From positions 8,745,685 to 8,809,684 of the forward strand of contig NC_057755.1 of NCBI RefSeq assembly GCF_004010195.1: a DNA stretch of 64,000 bases, in the 5' to 3' direction. Both the position numbers and the translations under genes were made by a program. The DNA comes from Chiloscyllium plagiosum (taxonomy: Eukaryota). Shown one piece after another: positions 19,126-64,000 of this stretch (its first letter is position 1; each line of letters opens with the position of its first letter). The notes below the pieces were generated by a model. The model saw only the letters and a program-made list of their open reading frames with translations. It ran no database searches and had not been told where the DNA came from.

Positions 19126-19269
19126 CCTGACGAAAAGTACTGTAGATCAGGAGAGAAAGAAACAAAGGGAGAATACTGCTCACTCCACGTTTCCAATTGA
19201 TGATTATTTCTCTCAACAAGGCCTCGAATGTATGGGATCAGGGAATTATATCAGCATCATTCGAGATAT

Positions 19270-32420: not shown

Positions 32421-32885
32421 CAACAATAGCAGCAGACGGACAAGTAGGGTTCAGGAAGCAATATCAGAGACTGAATCAGATTCGAGAATGATAACAGTTT
32501 GGAAGATTTTGTGTTGTGTTATTTTATTTGCTTGTCGTTTTAGTCAGTCACTGCGCATATTCCAATGAGGCTGCCACTGCCCTTTCAAAATAAGAAGATA
32601 AACCTCTAAATGAGACAAAGCAAAGCAATAAATGTATTAGTTATTGGGAAAGGTATTGACAAGGAACACAAAAACAAAGACACAAACGTTTGTAAAGCAT
32701 TATGTGGTACAGACACAATCTCAGCAAAATACTATTCTTAATTCAATTCGTTTATTTATTGCACCATTGATTACTTCCAATTTCCCTGGCGGTATGTCAA
32801 CATTCCAGTTCTCAGGACATACAGCCATGGAAATTCCGTATTGCTTTTAACCTGAAGATCCTGTTCTCTAAATGGAAATACATTT

Positions 32886-37375: not shown

Positions 37376-37445
37376 CAATAATGCCAACCGCTGCAAGTAT
37401 CGGGTAGTAAATGCATGCTGTAATTAAGATTGCTGAGAATTCCAT
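37376..37445 (-). CDS. Exon 1 of the same GPCR (MEFSAILITACIYYPILAAVGII+G); spliced protein 332 aa, intron 33815-37375
   Basis: gggacATGG start; G|gtaagt donor; 70+929=999 nt in frame, giving YYPILAAVGIIVNLLGIVIL, similar to TM1 of GPR139 ([20 protein letters not shown], from recall). Confidence 0.88.
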
Positions 37446-38344
37446 GTCCCAGCCAATCTTTTTGATCCTGTGGAGTCAATGATTCTGTCCGCCGAAATGC
37501 AATAATATTGTGATCAGAGCCTGATTTTATTTGAAAGCTAAATGTCCATCGAGACAATAAATCTGGTTGAATCACTAATTACATTAGTTGCAGTAATCCG
37601 AACTAGCAGCAAATGAACCACTTTCCTCTGAGGGTTATCACGCAGTGGAATCTGTTTTTAGGAATTATTTGTCGCTAATTTTCTGAGAATTAGCATTAGG
37701 TGTTATTGGCATGTGTACTCAAGCGCAGAAGTACATGAGTCCAGTGAAAAGTGTACCATGTTGGGATTCCCAGCATCATCATAGGCCCAAAGTCACCACG
37801 ATGCAGAATCTGAGGTAGAAAGTAGAAAACATAAGCAACAAAGTTAAAAGTTAAACTTTACAATCCGTCTTACCATGACGTAGAAACATTCTGAAATAAA
37901 GTTTTAAGTTAAAAGAGAAGTTTTTAAATTATTTTCGAAAAACAACCATGTGTGACAATTTGCAATAAAGCTATTCTGTACCAATCTGTCTTGTAGCTTT
38001 TCCTTCATTATCGCCTTTTAAATCAACAAAAAACTGGGAAAGGTTTTTTAGTGAGTGGGAATCTCACACGGATTGCGACTCGGGCCCTTTTCTTTCTGAT
38101 GAAAGAACTGTGCTCTGCATTTCTGAGATTCCATTCAGGGTTACCCCAGAAATGTGGAACCGTGCTTCCATCATGACAGATCCTTCCTGTCTGGAACTTT
38201 CTTACATTGCAAAAAGTTTGTGTGATTTGACGGTGCTGTAAGAGTAAGGTGGCAGGTGGGTCGTGATATAGGATACCCGGTTAATAAGTTGGTAAGAGTG
38301 CCAAGGAGCCAGGCATGTATGCCGACTGGTGAGGGGTTAGAATA

Positions 38345-41300: not shown

Positions 41301-42120
41301 TTCAAATTTTGAAGGCAGGCTTAAAGAAGCAGCCAATAGATTCACTCGATACCAAACTCTCCCGGGTCATGTTTGATTATAAGACCACTCCTCTCATAAC
41401 AACAGGGATAACTGCAACAGAGTTGCTGATGGGAAGAAGACTCCACACCAGGTTAAACCTGATATTCCCAGACCTGGAGGGATGGTGCAATATCATCAGG
41501 AATACCAATAACAGCCACGTGACTTCTCTCAGGGGGAGAGACAGTTTACTTCAGAGGATGAAGTTAGGTGTCGAAACCACAGAAATAGCCGTGCACAGGC
41601 ACGCGATGAGGTCAGTGTGAGATCAGGTCCTTTGACTTACAGAGTTTGGTTAAGTGAGTCGGTCCTGAACAAACATGTCGATTACATGAAAACTGCTCCC
41701 TTGCAAACGGGGCAAGAGCAAATCATAAGTGTCCCCTCAGAACAGCCAGAAAGGCTATCAGAAACAGTGGGTTCTCCATCTCTGTCTCGCGTTGAATTAA
41801 ACTCCGAATGGGAGATGTCTGCAGCCTCGATATCGTTACCACCTGAAGAAGAGGAGGAAACTCTCCCGAGGTGCTGCGGGTGCAAATAACTATTTACAGT
41901 CCAGAAAACATCGCCCGTGTACAAGGCAGAGTAGGAAGAACCAGATCTGTGGTGAAAACATCCCAGGAGAAGCTACAACAGAAAGAGCAGGCTTACATTC
42001 CCAGAACTGGCGTGCGAGTTGTTTCGTCAATGGAACGAGGGTCAGGCAGATCACATTGACTATGAGCGCCCCGATTCTTCTTAACCTGAGCCAATCAGGG
42101 AGCACTGGCTGACAGAGATA
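38345..42120 (+). mobile_element. Decayed, internally deleted Mag-type Gypsy element A with nested CR1 pieces
   Basis: LTR ending ttatttca then PBS-like tggcggcgag (~38565); protease MAVDT (~40345), RT N-terminus PRFCKACPGPFAL, integrase VDGHSK..DNG..TAP.HPSS..RTVQ (41030-41480); partial 3' LTR to ~42120. Confidence 0.8.
38790..40025. mobile_element. Nested CR1 fragments in both orientations
   Basis: CR1 3' UTR and RT remnants (ALGAVPHGK, LAVWIQDWL). Confidence 0.7.
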
Positions 42121-42854
42121 ATCCGACTCTTGATGCCCCTTGAAGGTGGGGACTGATGTTTCTTGTCCATATCTGGTAAACTGAGCCACAATGCCCTTGA
42201 GGGAGTGAATTCCAGGATTTTGGTGCAACGACAGTGAAGGAAAGACGTTATATTTCCAAGGCTAGATGTTGAATGATTGGTAGTGGAACGTGCAGGGTGT
42301 GGTGCTCCCCTGTATCTGCTGCTCTTTGTTTGGCTGCAAGATGTCACGTATTTGAAAGATACGATATGAGGATCTTCAGTGAGTATCTGCAGTGTACCTT
42401 GTAGCTGTTACACAATGCTGTTACTGAGTATTTGTGAAGCAGATTAGTTGATCAACGGGTGTCAATATAAGATGAGGAGGTATTTCTTCCCTCAGAGCGT
42501 TTGCAGACTTTGGAACCCCTTGTCACAGACAGCTGTGGGGCAATAATCCTCGTCAATATTAAGACAGAGAGAGACAGAGAGAGACAGATTCCTGATCAGT
42601 TGGGGACTGATCCGTTTTGGGAAAGCGCAGGAAAGTGAACATGAGTACTGTTGGACCAGCCATGACCCTACTGAATGGTGGAGCAGTTTCGAAGTGCTGA
42701 TCAGTCTCCTCCTGTTCTTATTTAATGTCGCATTATGGTCTTTTCAATCATCTACTTAATGTCCTACTGAGCCAACAAACGTCATACATCATTTGTTAGG
42801 GAAGAATAACTGAAGAAAATCACTTGACATTCAGTTGCATTCCAATCATGAAAT

Positions 42855-42997
42855 AAGTTAAAAATCACACAACACCAGGTCATAGTCCAACAGGTTTAAT
42901 TGGAAGCACTAGCTTTCAGAGCACTGCTCCTTCATCAGGTGGTTGCTTCCAATTAACCCTGTTGCACTATAACCTGGTGCTGTGTGATTTTTAACTT
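42855..42997. repeat. 143-bp palindromic element (54-bp arms, 35-nt loop), probably Penelope-terminus derived
   Basis: Arms 42855-42908 and 42944-42997 are near-perfect reverse complements. Confidence 0.85.
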
Positions 42998-43295: not shown

Positions 43296-43879
43296 CTGCT
43301 CCATGGAAGGAAATTCAGGAAATGTGAAAGTGCTCAAATGATAGAACTGATGAAAAATAAAGATCATTCTCACAGACTCTGTTATCCTGATTGTCCACCT
43401 TGACAAGATAATTTGTATTTGATAAAATGATGATGGTAAACTACAGAAATGGAGTTTATCTCTATCCCAGGAGAAAAAGAAAAATACATTTAAGTCAATC
43501 CTGTACAAAACAATGTTGGAATAAAAATCAAAACAAGCACTGCAAAACTAGATCTGAATGACTTCCCTTCAAACACAGTGCCAGATATTTAAAAGCATCG
43601 ATATCTTTTCAAATGCAACCTGTTCAGAGATGTCATGACACAATTCTGGAGCAGGTGGAGCTTGGACTTGGGCCTCTCTGGTCCACAGGTCGGGATGAGT
43701 GCCATCAATACAACAGATTTAAATGTCGCTTGGAATATACTGGAGAGCCAGTGTAACTCACTTGGTTGAAATGGCAACAGTCAGATTGTAGACTTACATA
43801 TTAATTAGTCGCAGACATCATGCTGTGATGTCTCACGCACTCATCAGCTTAATGCAATCATTGGTAGATTTTGTACTCC

Positions 43880-44390
43880 TTACCTAATATATCATGAGCA
43901 GTTTTGGGCCCTGTGTCGAAGGAAGGATATTTAGAACCTGAAGGAGGTTCAGAAGATATTCATAAGAATGATCCTGGGGATGGAGGGTCTGTCATATGAG
44001 AATCGGTTGAGGACACCGTGAGTTTTTAAATATGAACGTGAATCTGATTGAAACTTTCTGAATATTGAGAGATTTGGATCGAGTGGATATGAAGAAGATG
44101 CTTCTTCTCATAGGACACATTCAAGTCTAATGGCACAACCTCAGGGTGAAGGGATGTCCCTTTAGAACTCAGACGAGACGAATTTCTTCAGCCAGAGGAT
44201 GGTGGAATTAATGGAAGTCATTGCCACACAAAGGCTATGGAGACCAAATCACTGAGTATTTGAAGAAAAAGTTAGTTTTCTTTATAAATTAGGGAATCAA
44301 GGGTTACAGGGAGAAGGCTGGAAAATGGGATTAAGGAACATGTCGGCCGAATCGCCTAATTCTCCTCCTATGTCTTATCTTTTTCTGATC
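43880..44390 (+). mobile_element. CR1 3' fragment
   Basis: gagcagttttgggccc...cctaattctcctcctatgtctta; similar to 18530-19125. Confidence 0.75.
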
Positions 44391-45251
44391 TTATGGACAA
44401 GTAGTGAATAGCATTTGATCCACACAAGTTTCAGGCAACTACTATCTTTAACAAAAGAGATTCTAATCATCGCCCTTTGATTTTCAATGACATTGTCATC
44501 ACAGCATCCACTGCTATTCATACCCTGGGGATTACCATTGAACTAAAACAGCCCTGCCTTAGCCATATAAGTATTGTAACGACAAGAGCAGAGCTGAGGC
44601 TTGGAATCCTGCTGCGAAAATATCACCCACTGACTACCCAAAGCTTATCTCATCATCTACAAAGCACACGTCAGGAGTAAGAGGGAATACACCTACTTGT
44701 CTGGATCGGTGCAGCTCCAAAAACACTCAAGAAGCTCAACACTATTCAGGACCATGGAAAATTCTGAAGAAGACTCAAACCAGATTCGAAAACTTAACTT
44801 AAGTTTTTCTCTACAAAGAAACTGCCAGATCTGCCGAGCCTATCTCATTTTACTTTGCTTAAAGCAGATATCAGCATCTGCAGTAGTTTGCATTTAGTCC
44901 AGCATATATCAGCCTATTTGTTTTCCATCACATCCATAAACTTTCAGTCTGTGTCCTCCCACTGCCGCTCAGTGAAAGCAGGTTGTACCATCTAAAAGAC
45001 ATATTGCAACAGCTCACCAAGTTTACTCAGACAGCTCCCTCTCAGTCACACAGCCACAACTGTCTAGAATCAGCAGATGGATGGGAGTGCCATCACTTGC
45101 AAGTTTCGTTCAATCCACTCACGTTCCTGGAATGGAAAAAAAACATCACCATTCCTTCAGTGTTGCTGGATAAGTTGAAAGACATTTGGACAGCTCCATG
45201 CATCGGAAAGTTTCAGTGGGATATGGATTCAATGCAAGGAAATGTAACTCG

Positions 45252-47460
45252 AACATAGAACATTACAGCACAGTACAGGCCCTTCGGTCCTCGATGTTGC
45301 GCCGATCAGTCATAACAATCTGAAGCCCATCTAATCTACACTATTCCATGTGCGTTCATATATTTGTCCAATTACGACGTAAATGCACTTAGAGTTGGCG
45401 AATATACGACCGTTGCAGTCAAAGCATCCTATACCCTGACTCCTCTCTGAGTAAAGAAATCATCTCTGACATCTGTCCTATATCTATCATTCCTCAATTT
45501 AAAGCTATGCTCGGAGTCAACATACTTGGAAAATGTCTCTCCCTGTCCACCCTATATAACCCTCTGATTATCTTATATGTCTCTATCAAGTCACCTCTCA
45601 ACCTTCTTCTCTCCAACGAAAACAGCCTCAAGTCCCTCAGCCTTTCCTCGTAAGACCTCTGCTCCATACCAGGCAACATCCGAGTAAATCTCCTCTGCAC
45701 CCTTTTCAAAGCGTCCACATCCTTCTTATAATATGGTGACCAGAACTGGACATAATACTCCAAGAGCGGCCGCACCCGAGTTTTATACAGCTGTAGCATA
45801 GAACATAGAAGATAGAAGAATCCAGCGCAGTACAGGCCCTTTGGACCTCGATGTTGCGCCAATCCAAGCTCACCTAACCTACACTAGCCCACTATCCTCC
45901 ATATGCCTATCCAATGCCCGTTTAAATAGGACATAAAGAGGGAGAGTCCACCACTGCTACTGGCAGGGCATTCCATGAACTCACGACTCGCTGAGTAAGG
46001 AATCTACCCCTAACATCTATCCTTTACCTACCACCCCTTAATTTAAAGCTGACTCCATATGTGGAAAAAGGTTCTCATGGTCAACCCTATCGAAACCCCT
46101 AATCATCTTGTACACCTCTATCAAGTCACCCCTAAACCTTCTTTTCTCCAATGAAAACAGCCCCAAGTGCCTCAGCCTTTCCTCATACGATCTTCCTACC
46201 ATACCAGGCAACATCCTGGTAAACCTCCTCTGCACCCGTTACAGTGCCTCCACATCCTTCCTATAGCATGGCGACTCCCAAAGTGAATCACCTCACATTT
46301 AGCTACATTGAATTCCATTTGCCACCTTTCTGCAGCTTCTCTATATCCTGCTGTAACCTGCTACATGCTTCCTCACTGTCAACAACTCCTCCGCCTTTCG
46401 TATCATCCGCAAACTTGCTCACCCAACCTTCTAACCCCTCTTCCAGGTCATTTATAAAAATGACAAACAGCAATGGTCCCAAAACAGATCCTTGCGGAAC
46501 ACCGCTAGTAACTGCACTCCAAGATGAACCTTTACCATCAACTACTACCCCCTGTCTTCTTCCAGCCAGCCAATTCCTAATCCAAACCTCCAACTCACAC
46601 TCAATGCCATACCTCCGTATTTTTTGCAGTAGCCTACCATGGGGAACCTTATCAAACGCCTTACTAAAATCCATATACACCATATCTACCGCTTTACCCT
46701 CGTCTACCTCCTTAGTCACCTCCTCAAAGAATTCAATAAGGTTTGTGAGACACGATCTGTTCTTCACAAAACCATGCTGACTATCCTTAATCACATTATC
46801 CTTATCCAGATGTTCATAAATCCTCATGGTTCCGGAACTCAATCCCTCTATTAATAAAAGCTAAAACACTGAATGCCTTCTTAACAAGACTATCAACCTG
46901 GGAGGCAACTTTCAAGGATCTGTGTACCGACATCGAGATCTCTCTGCTCATTGACACTGCCAAGAATCTTTGCATTTGCCCGGTACTATGCATTCCGGTT
47001 CGTCCGACCAAAGTGAATCACCTCACACTTTTCCGCATTAAACTCCATTTGCCACCCCTCAGCCCATATATACAGTTTATCTATTTCTCTCTGTAACCTA
47101 CAACATCCTTCGTCACTGTCCACGACGCCAGCGACCGTAGTGTCGTCTGCAAATTTACTAACCCACCCTTCTACGCCCTCATCCAGGTAATTTTAAAAGA
47201 ATGACCAACAGCAGTGACCCAACACCGACCCTTGCAATACACCACTAGTAACTGGACTCCAGGATGAACATTTCCCATCAACCAACACCCTCTGTCTTCT
47301 TTCAGCAAGCCAATTACTGATCCAAAGTGCTATATCTCCCACAATCCCATTCCTCTGCATTTTGTACAATAGCCTATTGTGGGGAATCTTATCGAATGCT
47401 TAGATGAAATCCATATACACACATCAACCGGTTTACTCTCATCTACCTGTTTGGTCACCA
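45252..47460 (-). mobile_element. Stack of nested CR1 ORF2/3'-end fragments
   Basis: Tails at ~45255 and ~45800; ORFs 45494-45862, 46038-46235, 46303-46842 (FADDTK), 46814-47011. Confidence 0.92.
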
Positions 47461-47894
47461 GCGTCTACTGAATTGTAACTCTGGATGCGGAATAAATGCT
47501 GACTCAGCCTGTTCTCTATTGGAACTAAATTATCTGTAAAACATTTATAAATAAACCTGCTTCAGCAGACGGGTGGAAACAACAATGAAATGAATCATTC
47601 AACAAACCACGAGGAACACGAAGTTTTGAAGCAACCAAAGCCAGGGAACTATGTCAAATTTCAATAGGTAATGATGGAGTTAAGTTAAATCGGTTGTACA
47701 TAAACATAAAAATCAAAAGAAATTTGGATGTGGTAAATCAGAACCAAAAACACAAGTCGCTGGAAAAATTCTGAGGCAGAGTAACCAGATCCGAGACGTT
47801 AACTCTGATTTCTCTTCCCAAAAGCTGACGGACCTGATGCTCTTTCCCAGAACATTCTGTTTTTGTGTACACAAACATATCTGGATTTAAGGGC

Positions 47895-47964
47895 CAATAC
47901 TACCAACAGCTGTAAGTGTCGAGTAGAAAGTATGTACTAACTGTAAGATGGCTGAGTATTTCAT
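47895..47964 (-). pseudogene. Orphan paralogous GPCR exon 1 (MKYSAILQLVHTFYSTLTAVGSI+G) with non-consensus donor
   Basis: 70 nt, homologous to 37376-37445 within homologous flanks; donor G|gccctt; no exon 2 seen between 42100 and 47800. Confidence 0.8.
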
Positions 47965-48737
47965 TATGTCCCAATTAGATCTGTCAGTTCCTATGGAGTC
48001 AATGATTCTGTCCGTGGAAAACAATAATGTTGCCAAAACAGCCTAAATTTATTTAGAAGTTAAATTACCAGTGAGACAGTAAATCTGGTTGAATCGCTAG
48101 TTATATTAGCTGCAGTAATCTGAACAAACAGCAAAGTACTTACTTTCCTCTGAAAGTTATTCCGTAGTGGAATGTATTTTGAAGAAGAAAATGCCACTAA
48201 TTTCTTGAGAATTCGATTTCGGTTTCACTGTCATGTGTACGGAAGTGCAGAGGTACATGAGTACAGTGAAAAGTGAACACTGTCAACGTTCCTAGATCCA
48301 TCTCACAGACAATGGCATCTTGGTTCAAAACCTTAGGTAAAAAGGGGAAACATGAAATTAAAAGTTAAAACTGAAAAACGTGTTTTGAAATATTTTCGAA
48401 AGACAGAGCAAGGCACTCCAGTTTGCAATAAAGCTATTCTGTATTAGACTCAGATGCACATTTCCTTCATTATTGCCTTTTACATTAACCAAACACTCAG
48501 TTTTCAACTGAGTGGAAGTATCACGCCCATGGCTAATCAGTCCCTTTCCTTTTGGATACTAAAAAGGGGTTCTGCATTTCTGAGAGGAGGTTCAATTCAG
48601 CGTTACCTTCAGGAATGTGGAACTCGTAAGGGATTAGAATACTGGGATGTGGGTAGTGTAGTGATTGAGTTCCCTGACTGGGGCTGTTAACTTGGCCCAA
48701 TCAGGCAGCCCTTGCTGACAGATACAAACAGGAGATT

Positions 48738-50095
48738 ACGTTAGAGCCCGGGTGTCCTTGGAGAAGGAGCACGCGGTGTCGACCAACACCCTGGAGTTGT
48801 TCAGGGAGAGGTGGGCGCCGCAGGGAGTGGAGTGCATCATTTCTCCCTCCAACTCTATTTTGATTTAGTCCCTACCCTCCCCCTCACTGTTTTGATCACA
48901 CCGCACTGCCCTAGAAAAGAAAAAAAAAGAAACAAAAAAAAAAGAAAATAGAAACAATTTATAGTGCAAATGATGGCCATTTAGCCCAAATGTGCTGGCC
49001 AAGAAAATCAGTTCTCCTGCCTCTACTGCCCTATAAGATAGTCAACCTAGACTTCCACACCTTCTGAGTGAAAAGCTGTCTCCTAAAGGCCTTTCCCATC
49101 ATTCTAGCAAATTAATCCCACTAGTTATTAATCTTTCTGCTAAGGTAAACCAATCCTACCTATCAACCTGATCTAGGTACCTCCTCCATACTGACCAAAA
49201 CTGCAGACTTCCAACCACGAATATAATGGTTCACATCTTTGTTTGAACCAAATATTTGTGACAAAGCCGTGTCACTGCGGAATCTTTGGAGTGGCACGGT
49301 GGCTCAGTGGACAGTGTCAGGGCCCTGTGTTCGATTCCAGCCTTGGGCGACTATCTGCATACAGTTTGCACATTCTCCCTGTATCTGTGTGGGTTTCTTC
49401 CAGGTGCTCCCGTTTTCTCCCACAGTCCAAAGATGTGCAGGCTAGGTGGACTGGAGCCATGCTAAAATTGTCCATGGTGTGCAGGCTCAGTGAATTAGCC
49501 CTGGGAAATGCAGGGTTACAGGGATGGAGTAGGTCTGGTGAGATGCTCTTTGGAGGGTCAGTGTGGGCTTGATGTGCCAATGGCTTTCTTCTACATTGTA
49601 GGGATTCTGTAATTTCATACATTTCAATTTAATCTGCCTGCAGCCCCTGTCTTCCAAAGAAATAGAATCCAGCCTGTCCAATCTTTACTCATTTCTCATT
49701 CCTGCCCTCACAAAAGAATCTTGGGCACTTTTATCTTGAAGAAGGAGTTTTTTCTAATTTACTGACATCCTAGTAAGTTGAACTTGATCTTTGGAAGAGC
49801 ATGAGTGAGAGGTGACTGGGTTGAAATATATGCGATCCTAAATAGTCTTGACAGGGTGGATATGGAAAGACTGTTTTGATCACACAGCACTGCCCCTTGA
49901 TGTGAAGGGCAGTGTTTGTCACTGGCCATCCGGGTGTTTTCCTATCTTCCTGGTGGTGGAATTTGAATAAAGATTCGTGCACTTTGTGTCTTTCACTGTG
50001 TCTCACACCTGCACACACACACCATGGGTGCTGAGAAAAAATAAGCACTACCGCACTTAGGTGGTAGTGTGGGGGTTTAAAAAAAAAGAAAAAAA
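48738..50095 (+). mobile_element. 5'-truncated Tx1/L1-clade LINE (ORF2 C-terminus, 3' UTR, poly-A) with 14-bp TSD; contains a secondary insert 48912-49869
   Basis: VRARVSLEKEHAVSTNTLELFRERWAPQGVECIISPSNSILI* (stop 48866-48868; Tx1 assignment from recall); aataaa, 3' hairpin, A-tail; TSD acaaacaggagatt / acaaacagaagatt. Confidence 0.8.
49270..49610 (+). mobile_element. HE1/V-SINE
   Basis: gtggcacggtggctcagtgg head, V-domain, CR1-like tail. Confidence 0.85.
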
Positions 50096-52022
50096 ACAAA
50101 CAGAAGATTCACAGTCTTCTCAGTTTAGGGGACTGACTCTATGCTGGCTGGTGCTATAGTCAGTATGTTACTGTTAGTTTCTGTTTCCTTTTTCTGGAGG
50201 AGAAAACCTGATACCTGAACGGGCTGAACTATTTAGCCAGTTTGTTAACTGGCATTCCTTTTCGTGAGGACTGATTGTTAAACTCCTGATACACTTAATG
50301 AGTTTCAGGTTTAACTCAGTTCTCTTTAGGGGACTGTTGTTTCACTGGCTGGTTACAGCCTGTGTGTTACTCTTCTCTCCTTTTACTCTTTATATTAAAA
50401 GGATAATGTTAATTTAATGGTAGGGCTTAGCCCTTGGACTCTAGTTTTCTATGTTTTTTGTATGTGTCTTCACTTTTTATTGGTGTTTCGACTGAGCCCT
50501 TGTGGAAGACATACATTTTACCAGAGGAGCTGTTCCTGTGGGGAGGCCTAGCCATGGAACTGGGCCTCCGAAGATTGAACACCTGTGTGTGTGCTGGGAG
50601 GTGAGCAGTTGCTGTATCCTCGAGTTTGGGAGAAGACCTTTCCTTCAGGAGTGGACCAAACCCCTGTGATTTAACTGCACCTGTACTATGTACTGTGTTC
50701 CTATGACTGGGACTGGCTCTCCAAGCCTGGACCAGGTTTCCATTGAGACTGAACAATTGTGTGCTGTGGGGTGTGCATTTGCTGCCTCCAGGAGAGGACT
50801 CTGCCCTTGGTTGTGGACTGTTTTTAACAATGGACTCTGCAGTTTGGAGCGGATCTAATTCAGACATTGCACATTGTATACTGGAGTGGACTCTTCCTGG
50901 AAATGGATTTCATATCTTGAAGACGGTATTGATTTGGACTGTGTACCAGAAAGGAGTTTAGTTTGGGGTAACTAACTGTATTGTGGTGTTTCCTGGGTCT
51001 ATCACCCGCACTGTCTTGCGTGTCCCTGTGTCTGGCAGGCCTTAACTGTGAGCTGGGAGGCTCATGGGTCGTCCTGACAGCTGTCACACCGAGAGCCGGA
51101 GGGTGGGTAGGCCATCCTTTGATTCTAAAGGTTAGAAGGCTGTCCCAAAAGCCGGAGGGTGGGTAGGCCACCCTGATGGCAGTCGCCCCGAGAGCCAGAT
51201 GGTGGGTAGGCTGTTCTGAGCACTGTCGTCCCGATAAGGGTTAATTGGGACGGGCTGTCCTAGAGGTGGTCGAAAGGTGTCAGAGCAGCCGAGTACCAGA
51301 AAGCGCGTAGGGGTGGGCTGAGATCCGGAAGGCTTGTGGGCTACCTACACGGTGTCGTCCCAGAGAAGGGGACGGGCTGTCTTAGAGGTGGTCGAAAGGT
51401 GTGCCAGGATAGCCCACTGGTCGGTGGGCTGGGTGAGAGCCCAATGGTACGTAGGGGCAGACCGAGAGCCAGAAGGCGGGTAGCCGTTCTCGGCGCTGTC
51501 ACCCCGGGCAGGTAGCGGGGCGGGCTGCCCCAGAGATGGTCGAAAGGTCCTGAGGGTGGTTAGTGAAGCCTGAAGGTGGGTAGGCCGTCCTGACCGCTGT
51601 CACCCCGGGCGGGTATCGGGTCGGGCTGTCCTAGAGGTGGTCGAAAGGTGTGTCAGGGCGGACCGAGAACTGGAAGGGGCATGGGGTGGACCGAGAACTG
51701 GAAAGTGGGTATGGGCGGGCTGCCTTAGAGTGGTCGGAAGGTGGGAGGGGCGGGGGCTTGCTGGGTCTGTATTGTCTGCACTTTTGTATGTAACAGTACT
51801 GTCTAATGTACAACTGTCATTGCTGTTGTCTCTTTATATCTTTCTGTGAAACTGGGATTCTGAGGTTTGTCCTCATGTCCCTGTAAACTGTTTGAATGGT
51901 AGGGTTTGGGGCCTGGCTTTGCTGCTCCTCTCCCTCGTAAAATTGCTGTCTCTTGTATGCAGCTGTAAATGTAACTGTTTGTTGTAAACTGTTTTTGTAA
52001 TTTGTTTAATAAAATAAAAAAA
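50096..52022 (+). mobile_element. Non-coding poly(A)-tailed retroposon-like unit 1 (~1.93 kb)
   Basis: Begins acaaacagaagattc; internal GC-rich subrepeats; ends tttaataaaataaaaaaa. Confidence 0.75.
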
Positions 52023-53953
52023 AAACAGGAGATTCAGAGTTTTCTCAGTTTAGGGGACTGACTCTATGCTGGCTGGTGCTATAGTCAGTATGTTACTGTT
52101 AGTTTCTGTTTCCTTTTTCTGGAGGGGGAAACCTGACTACTGAACTGGCTGAATTATTTCGCCAGTTTGTTAACTGGTACTCCTTTTAGTGAGGACTTAT
52201 TGTTAAACTCCTGATGTACACAATGTAGGGGATTGTTGTTTCACTGGCTCGTTACAGCCTTTGTATTACTCTTTTCTCATTTTACTCTTTTTGAGAAACG
52301 GATAATGTTAATTTTGTGGTAGGGCTTAGCCCTTGGACTCTAGTTTTCTTTGTGTTTTTTTTGTATGTGTCTTCACTTTTTGTTGGTGTTTGGACTGAGC
52401 CCTTGTGGAAGACATACATTTTACAAGAGGAGTTGTTCCTGTGGGGAGGCCTTGCCCTAGGATTGGGCCTCTGAAGATTGAACACCTGCGTGTGTGCTGC
52501 GAGGAGAGCACTTGCTGTATCCTGTAGTTTGGGAGAAGACCTTTCCTTTGGGAGTGGACCAAACCCCTGTGAGTTAACTACACCTGTACAATGTACTGTT
52601 CCTGTTTTTCCAAGCCTGGTTTTCCCAGCCTGGTTTTCCAAGGCTGGGCCAGGACTCCATGGAGACTGAACATTTGTGTGCTGTGGGGTGTGCATTTGCT
52701 GCCTTCAGGAGTGGACTCTGCCCTTAGGAGTTGACTCTGCCCTTGGTTGCAGACTCTGTTTTTAGCAATGGATACTGCAGTTTGGAGTGGACTCTATTTG
52801 CGACAATGCACATTGTATATTGGAGTGGACTCTTCCTGGAAATCGATTCTATATTTCGAAGACTGTATAGATTTGGACTGTGTACTAGAAAGCACTCTGT
52901 TTTTTGGTACTTAATTGTGTTGTGGTGTTTCCTGTACTGTCTTGCGTGTCCCTGGGTCTGGCAGGCCTTACTGTGAGCTGGGAGGCTCATGGGTCGTCCT
53001 GAAAGCTGTCACCCTGACAGCCGGAGGGTGTGTAGGCCATCCTGTGAACCTGAAGGTTGGTAGGTTATCCTGAAAGCCGGAGGGTGGGTAGGCCACCCTG
53101 GTGCCAGTTGTCCTGAGAGCCAGATGGTGGGTAGGCCACTCTGAGCACTATCTTCCTGAGACTGGGTAATCGAGATGGGCTGTCCTAGAGGTGGTCGGAA
53201 GGTGTGTCAGAGCAGCCGAGAGCCAGAAGGTGCGTCGGGGCGGGCTGAGATCCGGAATGCTTGAGGGCTACCCTGCACGCTGTCGTCCCAGAGAAGGGGA
53301 CGGGCTGTCCTCGAGGTGTCCGGAAGGTGTGCCAGGATAGTCCATTGTTCGGTGGCGCATCAGGGTGGGTGAGAGCCCAATGGTACGTAGGGGCAGACCG
53401 AGAGCCAGAAGGTGGGTAACCGTCCTCAGCACTGTCACCCCGGCAGGTACCGGGGCGGGCTGCCCCAGAGATGGTCGAAAGGTGCTGAGGGTGGTTAGTG
53501 AAACCGGAAGGTGGGTAGGCCATCCTGACCGCTGTCACCTCGGGCGGGTATCGGGGCGGGCTGTCCTAGAGATGGTCGAAAGATGTCAGGGTGGACCGAG
53601 AACTGGAAGGGGCATGGGGTGGACCGAGAGCCGGAAGGTGGGTAGGGGCGGGCTACCTTAGGGTGTTCGGAAGGTGGGAGGGATGGGGGCTTGCTGGGTC
53701 TGTATTGTCTGCACTTTTGTATGTAACAGTATTGTCTAATGTACACATGTCATTGTCGCTGTCTTGTCATATGTGGAACTGGGATTTGAGGTTTGTCCTC
53801 CTCTCCATGTAAAATGGTTAAACGGTAGGGTTTGGGGCCTAGCTTTGCTGCTCCTCTCCCTTGTAAAATTGCTGCCTCTTGTGTACAGCTGTAAATGTTG
53901 TTTGTAAACTGTTTTGTGATTTATTTAATAAAATAAAAAAAACGGGAAAAAAA
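52023..53953 (+). mobile_element. Non-coding poly(A)-tailed unit 2 (~1.93 kb)
   Basis: Colinear with unit 1; same start and same A-tail end. Confidence 0.75.
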
Positions 53954-55280
53954 ACAAACAGGAGATTCAGAATCTCTCAGTTTAGGGTACTGACTCTCTG
54001 CTCACTGGTGCTATAGTCAGCACTGGTGCTATAGTCAGTATGTTACTGTTAGTTTCTGTTTCCTTGTTTTTGGAGGGGGAAACCTGATTACTGAACTGGC
54101 GGAATTATTTAGCCAGTTTGTTAACTGGCATTCCTCTTTGTGAGGACTGATTGTTAAACACCTGATGCACATAATGATTTTCAGGTTAAACTCAGTTCTC
54201 ATTAGGGGATTGTTCTTTCACTGGTTGGTTACAGAGTGTGTGTTACTCTTTTCTCTCCTTTTTGCTTTTGAGAAAAGGACAATGTGGACTTTATGGTAGG
54301 GCTTAGCCCTTGAATTCTAGTTTTCTTTGTTTTTTTTTGTATGTATACTCACTGTTTTAGGTGTTTGGACTGAGCCTTTGTGGAAGACATACATTTTACC
54401 AGAGGACCTGTTCCTGTGGGGAGGCCTTGCCCTGGGATTGGGCCTCTGAAGATTGAACACCTGTGTGTGTGTGCTGGGAGGAGAGCACTTGATGTATCCT
54501 GGAGTTTTGGAGAAGATCTTGCCTTCAGGAATGGACCAAACCGCTGTGAGTTAACTGCACCTGTACTATGTTCCTGTGAGTGGGCCTGGTTTTGCAAGAC
54601 TGGGCCAGGACTCTATGGAGACTGAACATCTGTGGGGTGTGCATTTGCTGCTTTCAGGAGTGGACACTGCCCTTGGTTGCGCACTCTGTTTTTAGAAACG
54701 GAATCTGCAGTTTGGAGTGGACACTATTTCTGACATTGCACGTTGTATACTGGAGTGGACTCTTCCTGGAAATGGATTCTATATCTTGAAGACTGCATAG
54801 ATTTGGACTGTGTACCAGAAAGGACTCTATTTTTGGTAACTAACTGTATTGTGGTGTTTCCTGGGTCAATCACCTGCACTGTCTTGCGTGTCCCTGGGTC
54901 TGGCAGGCCTTGCTGTGAGCTGGAAGGCTCATGGGTTGTCCTGAAAGCTGTCACCCCGAGACCCAGAGGGTGGGTAGGGGCGGGCTGCCTTAGAGTGGTC
55001 GGAAGGTGGGAGGGATGGGGATCTGTATTGTCTGCACTTTTTTATGTAACTGGATTTTCTTATGTACAAATGTCATTATTGATGTCTCTTTATATTTTTA
55101 TGTTTGAAACTGGGATGTGTGGTTTGTCCTCAATTCCCTGTAAACTGGTTGAACGGTAGGGTTTGGGGTCTGGCTTTGCTGCTCCTCTCCCTTGTAAAAT
55201 TGCTATCTCTAGTTATCAGCTGAAAATGTAACAGTTTTGTGTAAACTGTTTTGTAATTTGTTTAATAAAATTTTAAAAAA
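53954..55280 (+). mobile_element. Non-coding poly(A)-tailed unit 3 (GC-rich middle deleted)
   Basis: Same ends as units 1-2; jumps from ...ctgtcaccccgag to gggtgggtaggggcgggc. Confidence 0.75.
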
Positions 55281-55678
55281 AAACAGGAAGGTAAGGTGTG
55301 TCAAGGCGGACCAAGAACTGCAAGGGACATAGGGTGGAATGAAAGATGGAACGTGCATAGGGGCGGGCTGCTTGAGAGTGGCCGGAAGCTGGGCGGGACG
55401 TGGGGTCGCGGAGTGTCTTGCTGAGTTTCTGGGGGTCTGTATTGTATGCAATTTTTTAATGTAATCGGACTGTCTTGTATGTAGCAATGTCTTTGTTACT
55501 GTTTTGTGGCAACTGAAACTGGGATTTGAGGCTTGTCTTCATTTCCCTGAAAACTCGTTGAACAGTAGGCTTTGAGGCATGGCTTTGCTGCCCCTCTCCC
55601 TTGTAAAATTTCTGTTTCTCTGAATACAGCTGTACATTTTAATTGTTTTTTAAACTGTGAATTGTTTAATAAAACATT
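55281..55678 (+). mobile_element. 5'-truncated, more diverged unit 4
   Basis: After aaacaggaagg it starts at sequence matching ~51646 of unit 1; ends tttaataaaa followed by acaaataggag. Confidence 0.7.
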
Positions 55679-56552
55679 ACAAATAGGAGGGCCAGGGGTT
55701 CTGTTCACTCCGAGAACTGGCTCTAAGGATACCAGACCAGTGGCAGGTACTTTACACATGTAAGTAAAGGGTGATAATGTAGCGACCTCTGTGAAGGTAC
55801 ATCATGGGAGACGAGCCTGAGATAAATGATGTATCCAGGCAAACGCACCTACTAGATAAAATGTCGTTGTAGTTCGAAATGCATCAAGTGGAACATGTCA
55901 TCTATATGGAATGCCGATGGAAGCACACACTCTCATCAGACCAACTGGGCTTCGGGGATAGCACTTGAGTGAAAGCAATTGCATCACCTCAGGACATACC
56001 CTGAACAGATGGACTCCCGGTCAGCTCACAACAAAAAACCGCAAAGCAAAGTCCAATCTCGGCCAAACTGTTAACATTTTCTTCAGGATCAGAACCAGAA
56101 AGCCATTGTCCTTGCTGCCAGGATGCGAATTTGTGACAGTGACAAACTCCCACTAGATCTGAAGTGAATAAAAGAATTGCTAGACCGGAATCCAGGAGTG
56201 TGCACATCGTGGAAAGCACACCTACAGCTGGCATGGAACAATTACATTGCTCAGCAACATCCAAATCAGAACTAATCAAAATAAACGTCGAGTTAAATGT
56301 TCACCTGGTTGCAATGGAAGTAGATACCAGCACAGCTGTATCAGTGGTTGCAGATCTAATCTTGAACAAAGTTCGCTCAGGACTCCAACTCTTAAGATTG
56401 TATAAGAGCTCAGCTAAACTAGATTAAGGGGACAACTTCGATTCTGGTCTCATATGAGAAGCAGCTGGTTCATTTTCCAATTGATTCACTTTCCAATTGA
56501 TTCACTTTGATTGGCTCAACATTTTTACAATAAGAAAATCGTTCCTTTTGCT

Positions 56553-56880
56553 TTACTCATTCACAGGATGAGGGTGTCGCTGGTTAACCAGCATTCATTG
56601 CCTATCCCAGAGGCAGTTAAGAGTCAACCACATTGCTATTGATCTGGAGTCACATGTTGGCCAGACTAGCTTAGGACAGCCGTTTCCTTCCCTGAAGGAC
56701 ATGAGCGAGCCAGATGGGTTTTTTCCAAGTTTTGACAATGGGTTTCTGGTCATCCCAGCCATTTTATTCCATATTTTTATTAAATTAAAATTAAAATTCC
56801 AAGGCAGTTTGCGAACTTGTGTCCCAGAATTATCAATCCCCATGATGATACCACCAGGCCATTTGCCTCCCCGATAGAGT
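56553..56880 (-). mobile_element. SINE of the second family nested in Gypsy B pol
   Basis: Homologous to 12265-12560. Confidence 0.65.
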
Positions 56881-58888
56881 GACATCCGGGCTTGAGTGAA
56901 GTCTGAACGAAATACCCAGAGCCTTTTCAGGAATGTCTAGGGATTCCAAAAGGAACGAAGGACACCTTGCAGATTGACCAAGAAGCAATTCCACGATTCT
57001 GCAATGTGCACCTAGTGCCGTCACCCTACACGGAAAAGCATACTCAGAAATCAGGAGGCTGCAAAGGGAAGGAATCATCAATCCAGTACAGTTGGCAGAA
57101 TGGACAGCACTGCGTGTACAATGAAACCTGATGGGTCGGTTTTGCCGTTGTGAGGATTTTAGACAACTGCAAACCAATCCTCACAGTTGCATCAATACTA
57201 ATCCCTCATTATAGCGAACCGAATTTTATGATGGGGCGCAAGAGGGATTGCCTTGAGTAAAGGTCTCCACCAGTCACTGGCGGTACACCAGTGGGGTCAT
57301 CCAATGGTTTCCAAAATGAACATGTTGGTGAGACATTCTGCCTGGTGGCCAAGATTGGATGACAGCACAATCACGTTGGTAAGGCAGTGCCCATTGTATC
57401 AACAAAGACAAAATATACCACCAACAGGTGCCTCCCATACACATGGAATTGGCTGGGTAAACATTGGTTTTGATTACATGTAGACTATACTGTTCCATTC
57501 ATGGGCTCAATGTTCTTGGTTATTGTGGATGCCCATTAAAAGTGGTTGGACCTGCATAGAATTCATTTGGCAAACTCTGTCATGATGATTGCAAAGCTCT
57601 GTGCATTATCTGTGATAAACAGAATTCTGGAAATATTGGTCAACAACAATTGGATGTTATATTTCAGCAGAGAATTCTGGTATTTCCAGAATGGCATTCA
57701 GCTTGTTCAGATAGCTCCATAACATCGACGTCCAATGGTGTGGTGCAAATGTTTAAATGAAGGCAGGTTTAAAGAAACAACCAACAGCTTCAATCGATTA
57801 CAAACTGTACTGAGTCTTGTTCGATTAGAGTACCTCCCCTCACACAACAACAGGGATAGCTCCAGCATATTTTCTGATAGGGAGAAGACTGCACCAGGTT
57901 AAACCTGATATTCCTGGACGGGGACGGGGGGGGGGGGGGGGGAGGGTGAAAAAGCATCATAAACACCAATACCACCACATGCCTCCTATGAGCGAGAGAG
58001 AACATTTAATTCAGGGGCGAAATTTGGTGTCGAAACCATACAAACGGCCGTGGATGGGTATGAGATTAGGTCAATGCGGTATCAGAGTCCGTAACTGACG
58101 GGGTTTGGGAAAGTGAACCGGTCCTGACAAACATGTGGATCATATGAAATCTGTTACATTCCAAAGGAGGTAGGAGCAATACATACCTGTCCCCTCAAAA
58201 CAGTCAGAAAGGCTATCAGAAATCCGGCGTTCACCCCCTTTGTCTAATGTCGAAGGAACCTCCGGGTCCGAGGTAGATGCAGCCTCGATACATGCACACA
58301 CAGCCACGGGGGCACAAGTAATATAGGGGAATATCAGCAGAACTGACGTAGAGTGACCATGTCGGAGATAGACGAGAGAAAAGCGAAAGGAAACACGGAA
58401 AAGAAATAGAACGGTCTCCTCATTCTCGGTACTGGCTTGGAGCTGCCTGATTTGGAGCTCATTTACTATGCACTTGTAAATAAAGTTTGACTTGGTGAAG
58501 CGATACTGGACTCTGCACAGTTATTTCAGTGTTAAATGAATGCACTCCATTATTATGAATGAGAGTTTATTGGAAATCTAAATTGTAATAACAGATAATA
58601 GTCTCTTGTTTGTTGGCAGATTGAGTCTGTCAGGTGTGATAAGGGAGGAAGCTAAACCCCCAATTTCTTTCAATCGGTTACATGAGAACAAATTACCACG
58701 TCAGATTATTTGTTTTGTGCAATGATGCAATCATTGGGGCTGTGCCAACTTTGATAGCCCGTTCCTAGTTGCACTTTGAAGTTAGCGCTTTGCTACTTCT
58801 TTTCCACGTGCCAGTAGACTGACCCATAGTGCCCTTAGGCAGGGAATTCCAGTATTTTGACTGAGTGAAAATGAAGGAACAGCAGTAT

Positions 58889-59205
58889 TAGATTACATTA
58901 GATTACATTACAGTGTGGAAACAGGCCCTTCGGCCCAACAAGTCCACACCGACCCGCCGAAGCGCAACCCACCCATACCCCTACATTTACCCCTTACCTA
59001 ACACTACAGGCAATTTAGCATGGCCAATTCACCTGACCTGCACATCTTTGGACTGTGGGAGGAAACCGGAGCACCCGGAGGAAACCCACGCAGACACGGG
59101 GAGAACGTGCAAACTCCACACAGTCAGTCGCCTGAGGTGGGAATTGAACCCGGGTCTCAGGCGCTGCGAGGCAGCAGTGCTAACCACCATGCCACCGTGC
59201 CGCCC
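58889..59205 (-). mobile_element. Young full-length HE1/V-SINE
   Basis: Minus strand gggcggcacggtggcatggtggttagc (A box) ... gggttcaattccc (B box), V-domain, gggccgaagggcctgtttcc tail shared with CR1, (taatgtaatc)n end. Confidence 0.92.
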
Positions 59206-59424
59206 ACCGTGCCAGTATATTTCCCACTCGAAATGGTGAGTGACTTGGAGGGGAACGTGCAGGGTGTGGTGTCGCCATATATCTGCTGACCTTGTCCAGA
59301 TGGAAGTGGTCACGTGTTGGAAGGTGCTGTCTCAGGATTTTGGGTGAATTTCTGGAGCGTATCTTTGAGCTGGTACATGCTGCTGTCATTGAGTGTCGGT
59401 GGTGGAGGGGCTAGATATTTGAAT

Positions 59425-61745: not shown

Positions 61746-62565
61746 ATCCCATCCTGTTGTAACAATCAAGCGAGTTGCTTTATCCTGGATGGTGTCAAGA
61801 ATGTTATTTATAATTAATGCGAGTGCTAAATATTTATTTCACAGTTAATCTTGGTGCTGAGTCTCAATATTCAGTGAACTGCTTAGATATGTTGACGTGC
61901 GTGATCATCCACTGGGCATTGTAACTAATGTGACCAGAAATAAACAGGGGAAAGTAACAAGAGTCACAGCTGTGGACAGGAACTAAAGCTTAAGCTGGCA
62001 TTTCATAACAGCTTATACAAAACAAAATGCAAGGCACACCCAAAGAATGAGGTTCAGGAATGTTGAAATTGCAGCAGTTTCGATGATGGAAAAGACCTTT
62101 GAATATTACATATTCTCATCCAAATTGCAATAAATCCCAGCAAAATCAAATTTCCGAATGATAGCAGTTTGGAAGATAATAAGTTTAATCTTTGCATTCC
62201 GTGGTAGCCAGACATTGAACATATTCACATGAGGTGGCCACTGACCTTTTAGCACTAGAACGTAAACTTATTGACGACAAAAAACAACAAAGATTTAAAT
62301 GCAATAGAATCTGAAAAAAATCTTTATATGGAACAGAAAAGCAGCCTCAATATTTTGAACAGCAATACCCTTGAAAAATACCCAATCTCAGTGAAATATT
62401 ATTCGAAATACATTTTTTTAACAGAAGTGGTTATTTCAAATTTTCATGTTCTAGAGGCTTCTTTCCAATTCTGAGGACATTGACTTCTTTTCGGTTGATG
62501 CAGACAGGGAAATGCCACAAGTTCTTTAAAAATGGAGATCATGTTCTAATGCTGGAACTATATCT

Positions 62566-63473
62566 GCAAATTGAGGTCAGATGTGTATCTTTGTTTGCAC
62601 AGTTTAATAATTCTAGAAAATGGAAATTTTACTCCATTGATTAACTCGTCTGAATTTAATTTGTGTTAGAGTGTATATGCAAGTGCCGGTGCACAAATTC
62701 GCATGAATCCAATTTCTTGAAGAACAAATATTGGATTATTGAACGTATTGTCTTGAAAATTATAGATTATCACTTGCCAGTTGGAAGAGTGTACGATATA
62801 TGTCACCCACAACAGTTTAAAGTTAGCAGACAATGCAAAGACCAAGATGGTTTATTATCTCCGGATTACCACCTCTGGACAAGTATTATTCTGTCCATTT
62901 CCGTGAATCTAGAGGCGACAGTGGATGCGGATAGCTGTTCGAAAATTCCTGACAGTCAGGGCATTGAATACCAAATCAATATAGCTGGAATCAATTGTGC
63001 AATTACGCTGTCAAGCCATTCATGCACATTCCAGAATAATGATGTTTCATAGTCTGATATTATGATGCAAAACCACAGTACACTGTCAAAACAGTTGAAT
63101 ACAAAATGCCAAGTAATTGACCGCAAACACCAGGCCACACACACAGTTACCATCACCACAAATTCAATAGTCATGTTGCGATATCTTGCTCTTCGCTTTT
63201 GGCAAAAAATTGCTGCAAATCAAGCAAACCTGAAAGCAACTGTGGACCAAACTGAACACTCCATGACGGCAAGGAATATGACAACTTTCAAGGCACACAC
63301 AGGAGCGATGAGTAAGAAATTAATAGGGAAATAAAGATTGCTAATTCGGTGCAGTAAGACATTAATGATGGCAAGAAATAGATCTGCTGCAGACATTACC
63401 AACGAATAGCGAGTGGCGTATTTGGACAGCCCGCAATTGCCTCGATACAGGATCACAATTCCTATGACATTAA
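62566..63473 (-). pseudogene. GPR139/GPR142-like GPCR pseudogene, exon 2; exon 1 presumably beyond the window
   Basis: Close paralog of 32886-33814 with homologous flanks; intact acceptor tttacag|TT; TGA within the DRF codons (63220-63222), frameshift in TM5, original stop changed to TGC. Confidence 0.92.
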
Positions 63474-64000
63474 CTGTAAAAAAAATGAAGAAATGGACAC
63501 GTCTTCACGATTAAAGTCACAGTAAAAACATCATATGTTTGCTACAACATTTGTCTGCTAAATCAGACCAAGTGCCTCAGATTAATATATTAACTCAATT
63601 ACACGATGCATAGTGAAAATTTACAATGGAATTATGGACTCAAGCATACTAGAATGAAATAAAAGCATGTTGGGAAGCAATAGACAAGAAAAAAACAATA
63701 AATAAATCAGATTATAACCGTAAATAATGAAATGTTTTCATGCAAGCTTGTCATGCTGAGAGATTCATTGAAATGCTTAAAAGATCTCTCATACTTACAA
63801 AACTGGTAATGGAAGAAAACAACCAAACCAAAATCGTAATAAGGTCAAGGCGTTTCACATCAATGGACATGATCAAGAACTGAGTAAATGAACAATCACA
63901 ACAATAAATATTTTATGGAGTGCTATGATTGGAATTGAGGGCGAAGTTGTTGGACTGGCCTGTCATTGAACTGGATCCTATGCTTCCTCATGCATGTTAG

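Follow-up and report, generated by a model that had tools for sequence, protein, structure and literature searches.

Retroposons stacked at one motif of a Gypsy-like LTR in a shark genome: a probable Tx1-clade LINE copy and four non-coding units

The 5' LTR of a decayed retrotransposon, here called element B, is interrupted by a series of inserts, and the question raised by this locus is why they all lie at the same point. A sequence-only reading had proposed that a Tx1-type LINE and a non-autonomous partner target the LTR promoter, with every insertion regenerating its own target. We followed up this proposal in the window, i.e. the whole stretch of 64,000 nucleotides of Chiloscyllium plagiosum DNA that was analysed, where the locus is made up of the following features:

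48657..48723, + strand: left part of the 5' LTR of decayed element B (start approximate), with a CCAAT box at 48697
48724..48735, + strand: motif copy 1, serving as left target site duplication (TSD) for the Tx1 copy (12 bp and a further 2 bp of microhomology, to 48737)
48736..48913, + strand: 5'-truncated, probable Tx1-clade LINE, with the final 43 ORF2 codons and the beginning of the 3' UTR
48914..49869, strand undefined (.): 956-bp low-copy genomic segment inside the Tx1 3' UTR
49870..50095, + strand: remaining Tx1 3' UTR with a terminal 10-bp hairpin and an A tail
50096..50106, + strand: motif copy 2
50107..52020, + strand: unit 1, full-length non-coding retroposon, AATAAA and A tail
52021..52031, + strand: motif copy 3, core from 52023
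52032..53953, + strand: unit 2, full length, 88.8% identical to unit 1, with an 84-bp exact head match
53954..53964, + strand: motif copy 4
53965..55278, + strand: unit 3, complete head with an 18-bp duplication, G-rich repeat region mostly deleted
55279..55289, + strand: motif copy 5, core from 55281
55290..55678, + strand: unit 4, 5'-truncated, most diverged
55679..55804, + strand: motif copy 6 and right LTR part, 45/76 identical, ungapped (55690-55765), to a paralogous LTR
55805..58530, + strand: decayed internal region and diverged 3' LTR of element B

Inserts are truly piled at one LTR site. The motif occurs six times within the stack, at 48724 (ACAAACAGGAG), 50096 (ACAAACAGAAG), 52021 (AAAAACAGGAG), 53954 (ACAAACAGGAG), 55279 (AAAAACAGGAA) and 55679 (ACAAATAGGAG), and an A-rich tail or AATAAA end lies immediately 5' of each of copies 2-6, the tail of unit 4 being minimal (AATAAAACATT). 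The claim that A-rich tails end directly at the motif was thus borne out for five inserts, some of the ends being AATAAA. A relaxed 9-mer, derived from the motif copies themselves and hence a fitted pattern, matches seven times in 48400-56000, whereas 200 dinucleotide shuffles averaged 0.2 matches and never gave more than 2; the seventh match, at 48946, falls within an A-rich tract, and four further matches occur in the rest of the window. Once 48735-55689 (the inserts and one motif copy) is excised, the LTR lines up in register, gap-free, with an empty paralogous copy at 38.4 kb. The left half aligns without gaps to this paralog near 38.36-38.43 kb (51/69 identical, 48655-48723), and the alignment offsets of the two halves (38.33-38.57 kb) differ by 6,955 bp, the exact length of 48735-55689. 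The motif was therefore single before insertion. At the candidate TATA position, 24 bp 3' of the CCAAT box, the window reads GATACAAA; the site lies between this box and a polyadenylation-like signal approximately 80 bp further on, and it is by position that it may be called a putative TATA site. Motif copy 2 carries a G-to-A change at a base that pairs with the head hairpin of the unit. Covariation was rejected because the left TSD of the LINE still has G, and the change therefore post-dates insertion.

As for the host, element B is consistent with a Gypsy (Ty3) LTR retrotransposon, judging from its sequence. An Integrase_H2C2 domain (Pfam; integrase zinc finger) was detected at 57232-57480 (E 2.2e-7, one of the 12 ORFs scanned), and the part from 55805 to 58530 is 71-73% identical, in blocks, to a second element in the window, element A (40.0-41.8 kb). 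Upstream of the integrase, protease- and RT-like stretches are discernible by eye only, without Pfam match, and right after the LTR, at 55805, there is a TGG that we take to be PBS-like. Among the four LTR copies seen in the window, only the one carrying the motif has an insert.

The top insert appears to be the 3' end of a Tx1L-related LINE of the Tx1 clade, an assignment supported by protein comparison. Searches with its C-terminal 44-aa fragment matched one of five candidates and later gave six matches; those to P0006 and P0007, which are unrelated repeats, were dropped. The fragment aligns with residues 1256-1291 of Xenopus Tx1L ORF2 (16/36 identical, pairwise E 7e-8), and a profile built from six sequences retrieves Tx1L as the nearest named protein relative at E 1.8e-33. 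The sequence P0009 bridges the two, matching the fragment at 63% and, over 617 aa, Tx1L at 41%, and the Tx1-type identity originally proposed thus stands. The copy has a 5' truncation, an A tail and a TSD, its 3' UTR ends in the hairpin (z -3.4 relative to shuffles), and, retaining the last 43 ORF2 codons, it contains no endonuclease domain. The searches recovered no full-length member of its family.

Two details of the LINE needed revision. It had been read as a single truncated copy, and the truncation is indeed there, but the LINE content is only about 400 bp, in two pieces (48736-48913 and 49870-50095) that overlap by 26 bp (25/26 identical) and flank 956 bp of foreign DNA. This segment, which contains an A-rich tract, SINE remnants and other repeat remnants, has a depth of 4 in X1 as against 3-5e5 in the Tx1 bins. 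Contigs from all three organisms surveyed cease matching at 49876, loose contig ends at 49870/49875 rejoin upstream Tx1 sequence, and the segment probably came from another locus. Similarly, the reported 14-bp TSD is present, albeit with one mismatch. Tx1 family sequence extends upstream of 48736 in four of four runs (loose ends), and because the last two TSD bases are also Tx1 family sequence, the duplication amounts to 12 bp plus 2 bp of microhomology.

Downstream of the LINE lie the four units, which are related and non-coding as had been claimed, unit 4 being both 5'-truncated and most diverged; the length of about 1.9 kb, however, applies to units 1 and 2 only, with unit 3 at 1,314 bp (internal deletion) and unit 4 at 389 bp. 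Unit 1 consists of an LTR-like hairpin head (~60 nt), a T-rich 5' half and G-rich degenerate repeats, whose periods across units 1-2 are 28, 43 and 101 bp. Pairwise identity is 87.6-88.8% among units 1-3 and 75-77% between these and unit 4. The corresponding K2P distances are 0.122, 0.129 and 0.136 among units 1-3 and 0.27-0.31 from these to unit 4. With 61, 67 and 74 private sites in 211 variable columns, units 1-3 are about equally distant, and they carry different tails.

From their sequence, the units appear to be devoid of coding capacity. No Pfam family scored above cut-off in five unit ORFs and 32 further ORFs (one HGWP match among the latter was sub-threshold, E 0.014), stops common to at least two copies occur in all six frames, the longest open run is 182 codons, and tblastn of 14 Tx1-related proteins (Tx1 ORF1 left out) against the units returned nothing below E 0.1. 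An Rfam scan gave two matches, both far under the gathering score, and no ribozyme or RNA family in the head, while ARAGORN found 0 genes. We rejected a SINE identity, as there is no tRNA, 5S, 7SL or snRNA head and no LINE-derived tail (none of the four unit tails aligns to the Tx1 3' UTR above shuffles, p 0.63-0.85), and we likewise rejected a processed copy of an LTR element (R-U5...U3-R), as the unit 3' end has no LTR match. What the units do display are the traits of non-autonomous retroposons moved by LINEs, namely multiple copies, a poly(A) end, a TSD and 5'-truncated copies.

The unit is a dispersed mobile family, as supported by the contigs of all three organisms, in which it is abundant and 3'-biased. 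The concern that it might exist only here, as a local tandem duplication, can accordingly be set aside. Its depth is ~600-15,500x that of the low-copy bin in three of three contig runs and 2.1-5.2x higher at the 3' than at the 5' end, a pattern expected of 5'-truncated retrocopies. In collections not expected to include the host, so that blanks carry no weight, the unit 3' motif gave 0 matches in metagenome contigs and 0 in viral contigs, and with the Tx1 profile 0 of 44 candidates were confirmed in metagenome contigs and 0 of 41 in prokaryote genomes. In a single-cell poly(A) run of organism A (~2% read, 3,205 reads aligned), we observed reads at the unit 3' ends as well as 78 reads that have an A run behind 53958; reads of the opposite strand cover T-rich parts too, which is compatible with internal priming.

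We favour, with a probability of roughly 0.7 for the full scheme including endonuclease preference, order and mobilisation in trans, repeated target-primed insertion at a regenerated site. In LTRs of this clan, a Tx1-clade endonuclease/reverse transcriptase would preferentially cut the bottom strand immediately to the left of the AAACAGGAG motif, and reverse transcription on a poly(A) RNA would be primed at the nick. Every insertion would duplicate the motif (about 9-12 bp) and rebuild the site beside the LTR left half, and the next copy would enter upstream of the previous one. The order would have been unit 4 (an older subfamily, 5'-truncated), then units 3, 2 and 1, and lastly the Tx1 copy. 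Since the first base of unit 1 forms part of the Tx1 TSD, Tx1 was inserted after this unit. The 5' junctions take three separate shapes, in the LINE, in unit 4 and in the full-length units, which agrees with the earlier suggestion of repeated insertion at one regenerated site. The two headless inserts, Tx1 and unit 4, belong to different families and yet stop at one and the same motif; a homologous head is thus dispensable for site choice. Two junction contigs of organism B, described below, also fit this scheme. The 1.9-kb unit would be a non-autonomous retroposon family of the size of SVA elements, which have GC-rich internal repeats, and since it has no LINE-derived tail we propose that it may be moved in trans through its own poly(A).

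Of the proposed targeting of LTRs by Tx1 and its partner, repeated insertion and the mobile unit family remain, while the depths speak against strict targeting. Summed contig depth, a rough guide and not a copy number, is ~12-40x that of the LTR left half for the Tx1 3' end and ~1.3-6.5x for the unit 3' end. With the Tx1 family apparently outnumbering the LTR 12-40x, a preference is more plausible than strict targeting, and it is probably not exclusive. These ratios, which ignore stacking, argue that most Tx1 copies are not within LTRs; LTR copies less than 80% alike went uncounted and one LTR may hold many inserts, so that the ratio overstates off-target copies. The same depths would be expected if there were no dedicated system at all and an abundant Tx1 family loosely favoured A-rich/AAAC junctions, the LTR being relevant only as a carrier of the motif and most LINE and unit copies lying outside LTRs. 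The primed strand is T-rich at its end, which resembles the L1-type preference (L1 consensus TTTT/AA, PMC1950540). We consider such a hot spot unlikely, given that no A tail precedes the newest nick, GAT/ACAAAC, even though several were available a few kb downstream, and given the inflation of the depth ratio. An assembly artefact might be suspected since none of the organism A contigs listed spans the stretch or bridges its junctions, but the copies differ by 11-25% with many indels and the flanks rebuild an empty LTR to the base, and we give this explanation hardly any weight.

Two further accounts turn on the heads of the units. The motif may belong to the unit RNA, if a master unit originated within LTRs of a related family and is transcribed from the motif or from a point 5' of it; the TSD of units 1-3 would then be 5' homology closing the junction, and the mover would be a LINE other than this Tx1. 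In an anchored comparison, the initial 60 nt of units 1-3 are weakly like the LTR past the motif (p 0.002-0.0035 summed over three LTR copies; Tx1 control p 0.72), but the anchors were chosen by hand, the unit 4 control reached p 0.043, and none of nine unanchored local alignments was significant (p 0.07-0.84). Folding of the heads relative to shuffles gave z -2.5, -2.2 and -5.6 (the last inflated by the duplication), with +0.6 for the LTR control. The same account is favoured by the lack of a common tail between unit and Tx1 LINE, and by one contig of organism B in which a different LTR left half runs into motif and unit head, although its short side is 29 letters and it could be an intact LTR variant without unit. 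It leaves the two headless inserts unexplained, and we regard it as possible but doubtful; it is compatible with repeated insertion as proposed above. All three full-headed units begin at the identical base. With a TATA box located 11 bp 5' of the unit, textbook spacing puts the transcription start roughly 15 nt inside it, and simple TATA borrowing therefore fits poorly; these intact 5' ends speak against the suggested use of the LTR promoter in its simple form. The shared first base also fits a history of fewer events, three insertions and not five, in which units 1-3 arrived as a block, either from a read-through transcript of an array elsewhere or after a single full-length insertion had undergone local duplication or unequal exchange long ago. 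In line with this, units 1-3 diverge from each other by 11-12%, less than the run means of 15-16% (range 9-19%) to 17 contig pieces, which are the longest and so probably skewed to diverged copies. One contig of organism B crosses a unit-tail/motif/unit-head junction, differences among units 1-3 are clustered (116 runs vs 135 expected, p 0.003) and the 84-bp head is identical (p 0.008, post hoc), the last two suggesting either conservation of the head or a degree of exchange at the DNA level. On the other hand, no pair among these units is closer than the others, their tails differ, the family is abundant elsewhere, and the junctions of Tx1 and unit 4 still demand separate insertions at the motif, which makes arrival as a block distinctly improbable.

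Under repeated insertion, the locus would be a clean, ordered record of one site struck repeatedly over a long time, unit 4 being about twice as diverged as units 1-3, and the stack suggests that the target of a Tx1 endonuclease is short and can be defined. Should the family prefer LTR promoters, LINEs would be natural silencers of LTR elements in this genome, and the passenger would show such an enzyme delivering 2-kb non-LINE RNAs to a fixed site. More speculatively, and with the odds against it, the unit might have been born in an LTR, its head a folded copy of LTR downstream sequence, and be delivered by Tx1 mainly back to the promoters of the clan, as an undescribed SVA-sized shark family. 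If true, parasitism would have three tiers here, with the passenger riding on the LINE and the LINE on the LTR element; the passenger's head would at once need its landing site and restore it, and LTR promoters throughout the genome would be disabled by the stacks.

The sequence-only reading did not recognise the system as described, which is too strong, because Tx1 families that prefer LTR retrotransposons, and tandem non-autonomous partners, have been published (PMC4494074). Much as proposed here, Tx1L of Xenopus laevis, found in Tx1D, has a sequence-specific endonuclease aimed at another transposon, and it nicks its own target almost exclusively (PMC1950540); that target, however, is a DNA transposon, and Tx1L is described as stringent, whereas the family here seems very abundant. 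Among crocodilian Tx1 families, of which those with >20% of flanks in one repeat type are ruled target-specific, Tx1-8_Crp and Tx1-4_AMi prefer LTR retrotransposons (Kojima, 2015; PMC4494074). The available text gives neither the position within the element nor the LTR family, whereas the inserts here share a single motif just past a CCAAT box in a cartilaginous-fish-like genome. Tandem insertion is also known from Utopia-1_NVit, which is occasionally in tandem in U2 genes (PMC4640811).

The closest parallel to the partnership is Tx1-Mar with SINEU-1/2/3 in Mariner-N4_AMi, where, as here, a Tx1 element and a non-autonomous partner have a common target in a transposon; SINEU partners are often found in tandem, and transcription from the flank of the target has been proposed for them (PMC4494074). 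SINEU-1, like our unit, has no LINE 3' end in common, and one SINEU subfamily has a 5' extension from the target (PMC4494074). SINEUs are, however, mostly <500 bp, with U1/U2 snRNA heads and a DNA-transposon target (PMC4494074), whereas the unit is 1.9 kb long, with no Rfam match at gathering level, a G-rich repeat body and an LTR-like head. In being a long non-coding retroposon mobilised by LINEs, neither SINE nor deleted LINE, it resembles SVA (~2 kb) and Sadhu (0.9 kb), a likeness without expected sequence relation, and for these the available text gives no fixed target site (PMC4494074). In the literature searched, beyond which lie Repbase reports, most subscription papers and the supplements of Kojima (2015), we found no account of a shark Tx1/LTR system or of the 1.9-kb unit. 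Frogs and crocodiles already provide examples of such aiming, and it is the passenger alone that seems undescribed. In summary, the principle is in print for crocodilian and frog Tx1, and what this locus would add is another target, another lineage and a passenger of a new kind.

Element B, the decayed LTR retrotransposon whose 5' LTR is split by inserts, has a paralog, element A, near 38-42 kb, and both lie, with their flanks, in an older duplication of the whole block inside the window (36300-42430 vs 43500-59400; 68-80% identity in pieces). Owing to this duplication, element A supplies an LTR for comparison that is empty of inserts (38.33-38.57 kb). The alignment offsets of the two LTR halves against this paralog differ by 6,955 bp, the exact length of 48735-55689, and the motif was therefore single in the ancestral LTR. 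Judged from this alignment, all sequence between the halves is made up of inserts and duplicated motifs, arranged as follows.

48736-50095, Tx1-clade LINE
48914-49869, foreign low-copy segment of 956 bp inside the Tx1 3' UTR, bordered on each side by a copy of a 26-bp Tx1 sequence
50107-55678, units 1-4, related non-coding retroposon copies, of which units 1 and 2 are full length (~1.9 kb)

Inspection of the sequence located six motif copies to within two bases of where the sequence-only reading had placed them. A relaxed 9-mer gave 7 matches over 7.6 kb, where shuffled sequence gave 0.2 on average, with a pattern fitted to the motif copies themselves and with one of the seven matches inside an A-rich tract. 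Just 6 of 11 motif positions match in the empty paralogous LTR, the motif is absent from both 3' LTRs in the window, and insertions are found only in the motif-bearing one of the four LTR copies, which is weak evidence at n = 4. More reverse-transcriptase remnants lie at 475-1005, 7994-8752 (with RNase H domains, of LTR-element type) and 46303-46860.

On the sequence evidence, the LTR does hold a real stack of retroposons at a single, regenerated site: the inserts share one orientation with the motif duplicated, their 5' truncations stop at the motif, and two unrelated families have inserted at the one site. A Tx1 enzyme would nick to the left of the motif and start target-primed reverse transcription; since each event would rebuild the site beside the left half of the LTR, the stack would extend upstream, with the oldest insert farthest downstream. 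Unit 4, described earlier as 5'-truncated and the most diverged, is indeed both, at 23-25% from units 1-3 and with its truncation point exactly at the motif. The LINE target-site duplication takes in the first base of unit 1, so the LINE was inserted after unit 1, and the presence of two headless inserts indicates that head homology does not decide site choice. The Tx1L endonuclease is sequence-specific in vitro, according to PMC1950540. Strict targeting of the LTR by the Tx1 family is nevertheless doubtful, because summed contig depth, which is no copy number, is 12-40 times greater at the Tx1 3' bin than at the left half of the LTR; stacking and diverged LTRs shrink this gap.

It had also been proposed that inserts borrow the LTR promoter. 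With a TATA box at 48721-48728, textbook spacing would place the transcription start about 15 nt into the unit, whereas all three full heads are intact, their first base directly following the motif, which is at odds with the simple version of the proposal. Either the true start would be at the motif or upstream of it, or read-through would yield the full-length RNA.

The assignment of the LINE to Tx1 holds by its C-terminus: the reading frame at 48734-48865 is identical in 16 of 36 residues to the end of Xenopus Tx1L ORF2, and a six-sequence profile search returned Tx1L at E 1.8e-33 among 17 matches, several of them from sharks and rays, in keeping with a cartilaginous-fish host. Tx1 family sequence continues upstream of 48736 in reads and contigs (4/4 runs), so that, of the supposed 14-bp duplication, 12 bp are genuine and 2 bp are microhomology. 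The copy is truncated, as had been read, but its Tx1 sequence amounts to only 178 + 226 bp, the 956 bp between these two pieces being foreign. In all three organisms (A, B and C), contigs cease to match this segment at 49876, where the window resumes Tx1; it was therefore probably captured from another locus, via template jumping in reverse transcription or break repair. Its right end carries 7 bp of microhomology, and a 1,307-bp contig of organism C has 910 letters upstream without a match to the window, among the matches listed. The segment differs by 0.4% from contigs of A and by 4.3-4.6% from those of B and C, and such a capture, if it took place, was recent.

Units 1-3 are mutually 11-12% apart with no pair closer (K2P 0.122-0.136; 61, 67 and 74 private sites). 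Their differences are clustered and the heads of units 1 and 2 share 84 identical bp, which hints at limited exchange or at conservation of the head. The unit body consists of a T-rich 5' half and G-rich degenerate repeats, then AATAAA and an A tail. Stops common to the copies occur in all six frames, a Pfam scan of the unit ORFs (5 + 32) gave no family above cut-off, an Rfam search gave no match near gathering score, and a tail comparison revealed no 3' tail common to the units and the Tx1 copy. Across contig runs from three organisms, a single run for each (overall, 4 of the 24 listed runs were covered), summed unit depth is hundreds to thousands of times that of the low-copy bin, an order of magnitude only because summed depth is no copy number, and the unit 3' end is 2.1-5.2 times deeper than the 5' end. 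This depth rules out a unit present only at the window locus. Units 1-3 may still be of old block origin: the local units differ by 9-19% from 17 contig pieces counted among the matches listed (24 listed, beside a further 187,567 outside the listing; six on the captured segment and one that is the window locus itself are not counted), slightly above the unit-unit distance, so that units 1-3 are a little closer to one another than to these pieces.

In an in-register comparison, the initial 60 nt of units 1-3 show resemblance to the LTR sequence immediately beyond the motif (summed p 0.002-0.0035, three LTR copies; controls: Tx1 p 0.72, unit 4 p 0.043), and 0 of 9 unanchored head-LTR alignments were significant. 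In organism B, one contig with about tenfold the depth of the run's low-copy contigs links the left half of a different LTR with the motif and unit head (short side 29 letters). This contig represents either a further LTR in which a unit occupies this site or the family of LTRs from which the head derives. An LTR origin of the head is thus possible on these comparisons. The heads also contain a long hairpin fold (50096-50200, 52021-52125, 53954-54075) and, ~80 nt from their start, a sequence close to the reverse complement of the target motif (matches on the minus strand at 50186, 52111, 54061), which could have arisen by chance given the pyrimidine-rich context.

Elsewhere in the window, 32474-34307 and 62144-63974 are 71% identical; the former carries on the minus strand a rhodopsin-family GPCR frame of 318 codons (7tm_1, E 4.7e-17), and the latter has no frame as long. 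A degenerate 33-bp satellite forms several long arrays at 16900-30800, a SCAN-domain-like frame lies at 22358-22936 (E 3.4e-5, below cut-off), and an inverted-repeat element of ~140 bp at 42855-42997 has 83% self-complementarity.

In the literature searched, with most subscription papers and Repbase reports outside it, we found neither the 1.9-kb unit nor any Tx1/LTR system of sharks described. The view that the system is undescribed may hold for the unit but not for the Tx1 side, where crocodilian parallels are known; the part not found described is the long non-coding passenger, its head possibly target-derived. According to PMC4494074, crocodilian Tx1-8_Crp and Tx1-4_AMi favour LTR retrotransposons, Tx1-Mar and its SINEU partners sit in Mariner-N4_AMi, frequently in tandem, and transcription from the target flank has been proposed for the Tx1-Mar/SINEU system. 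It is to Tx1-Mar/SINEU and Tx1-8_Crp, as presented there, that we liken the working of the window stack.
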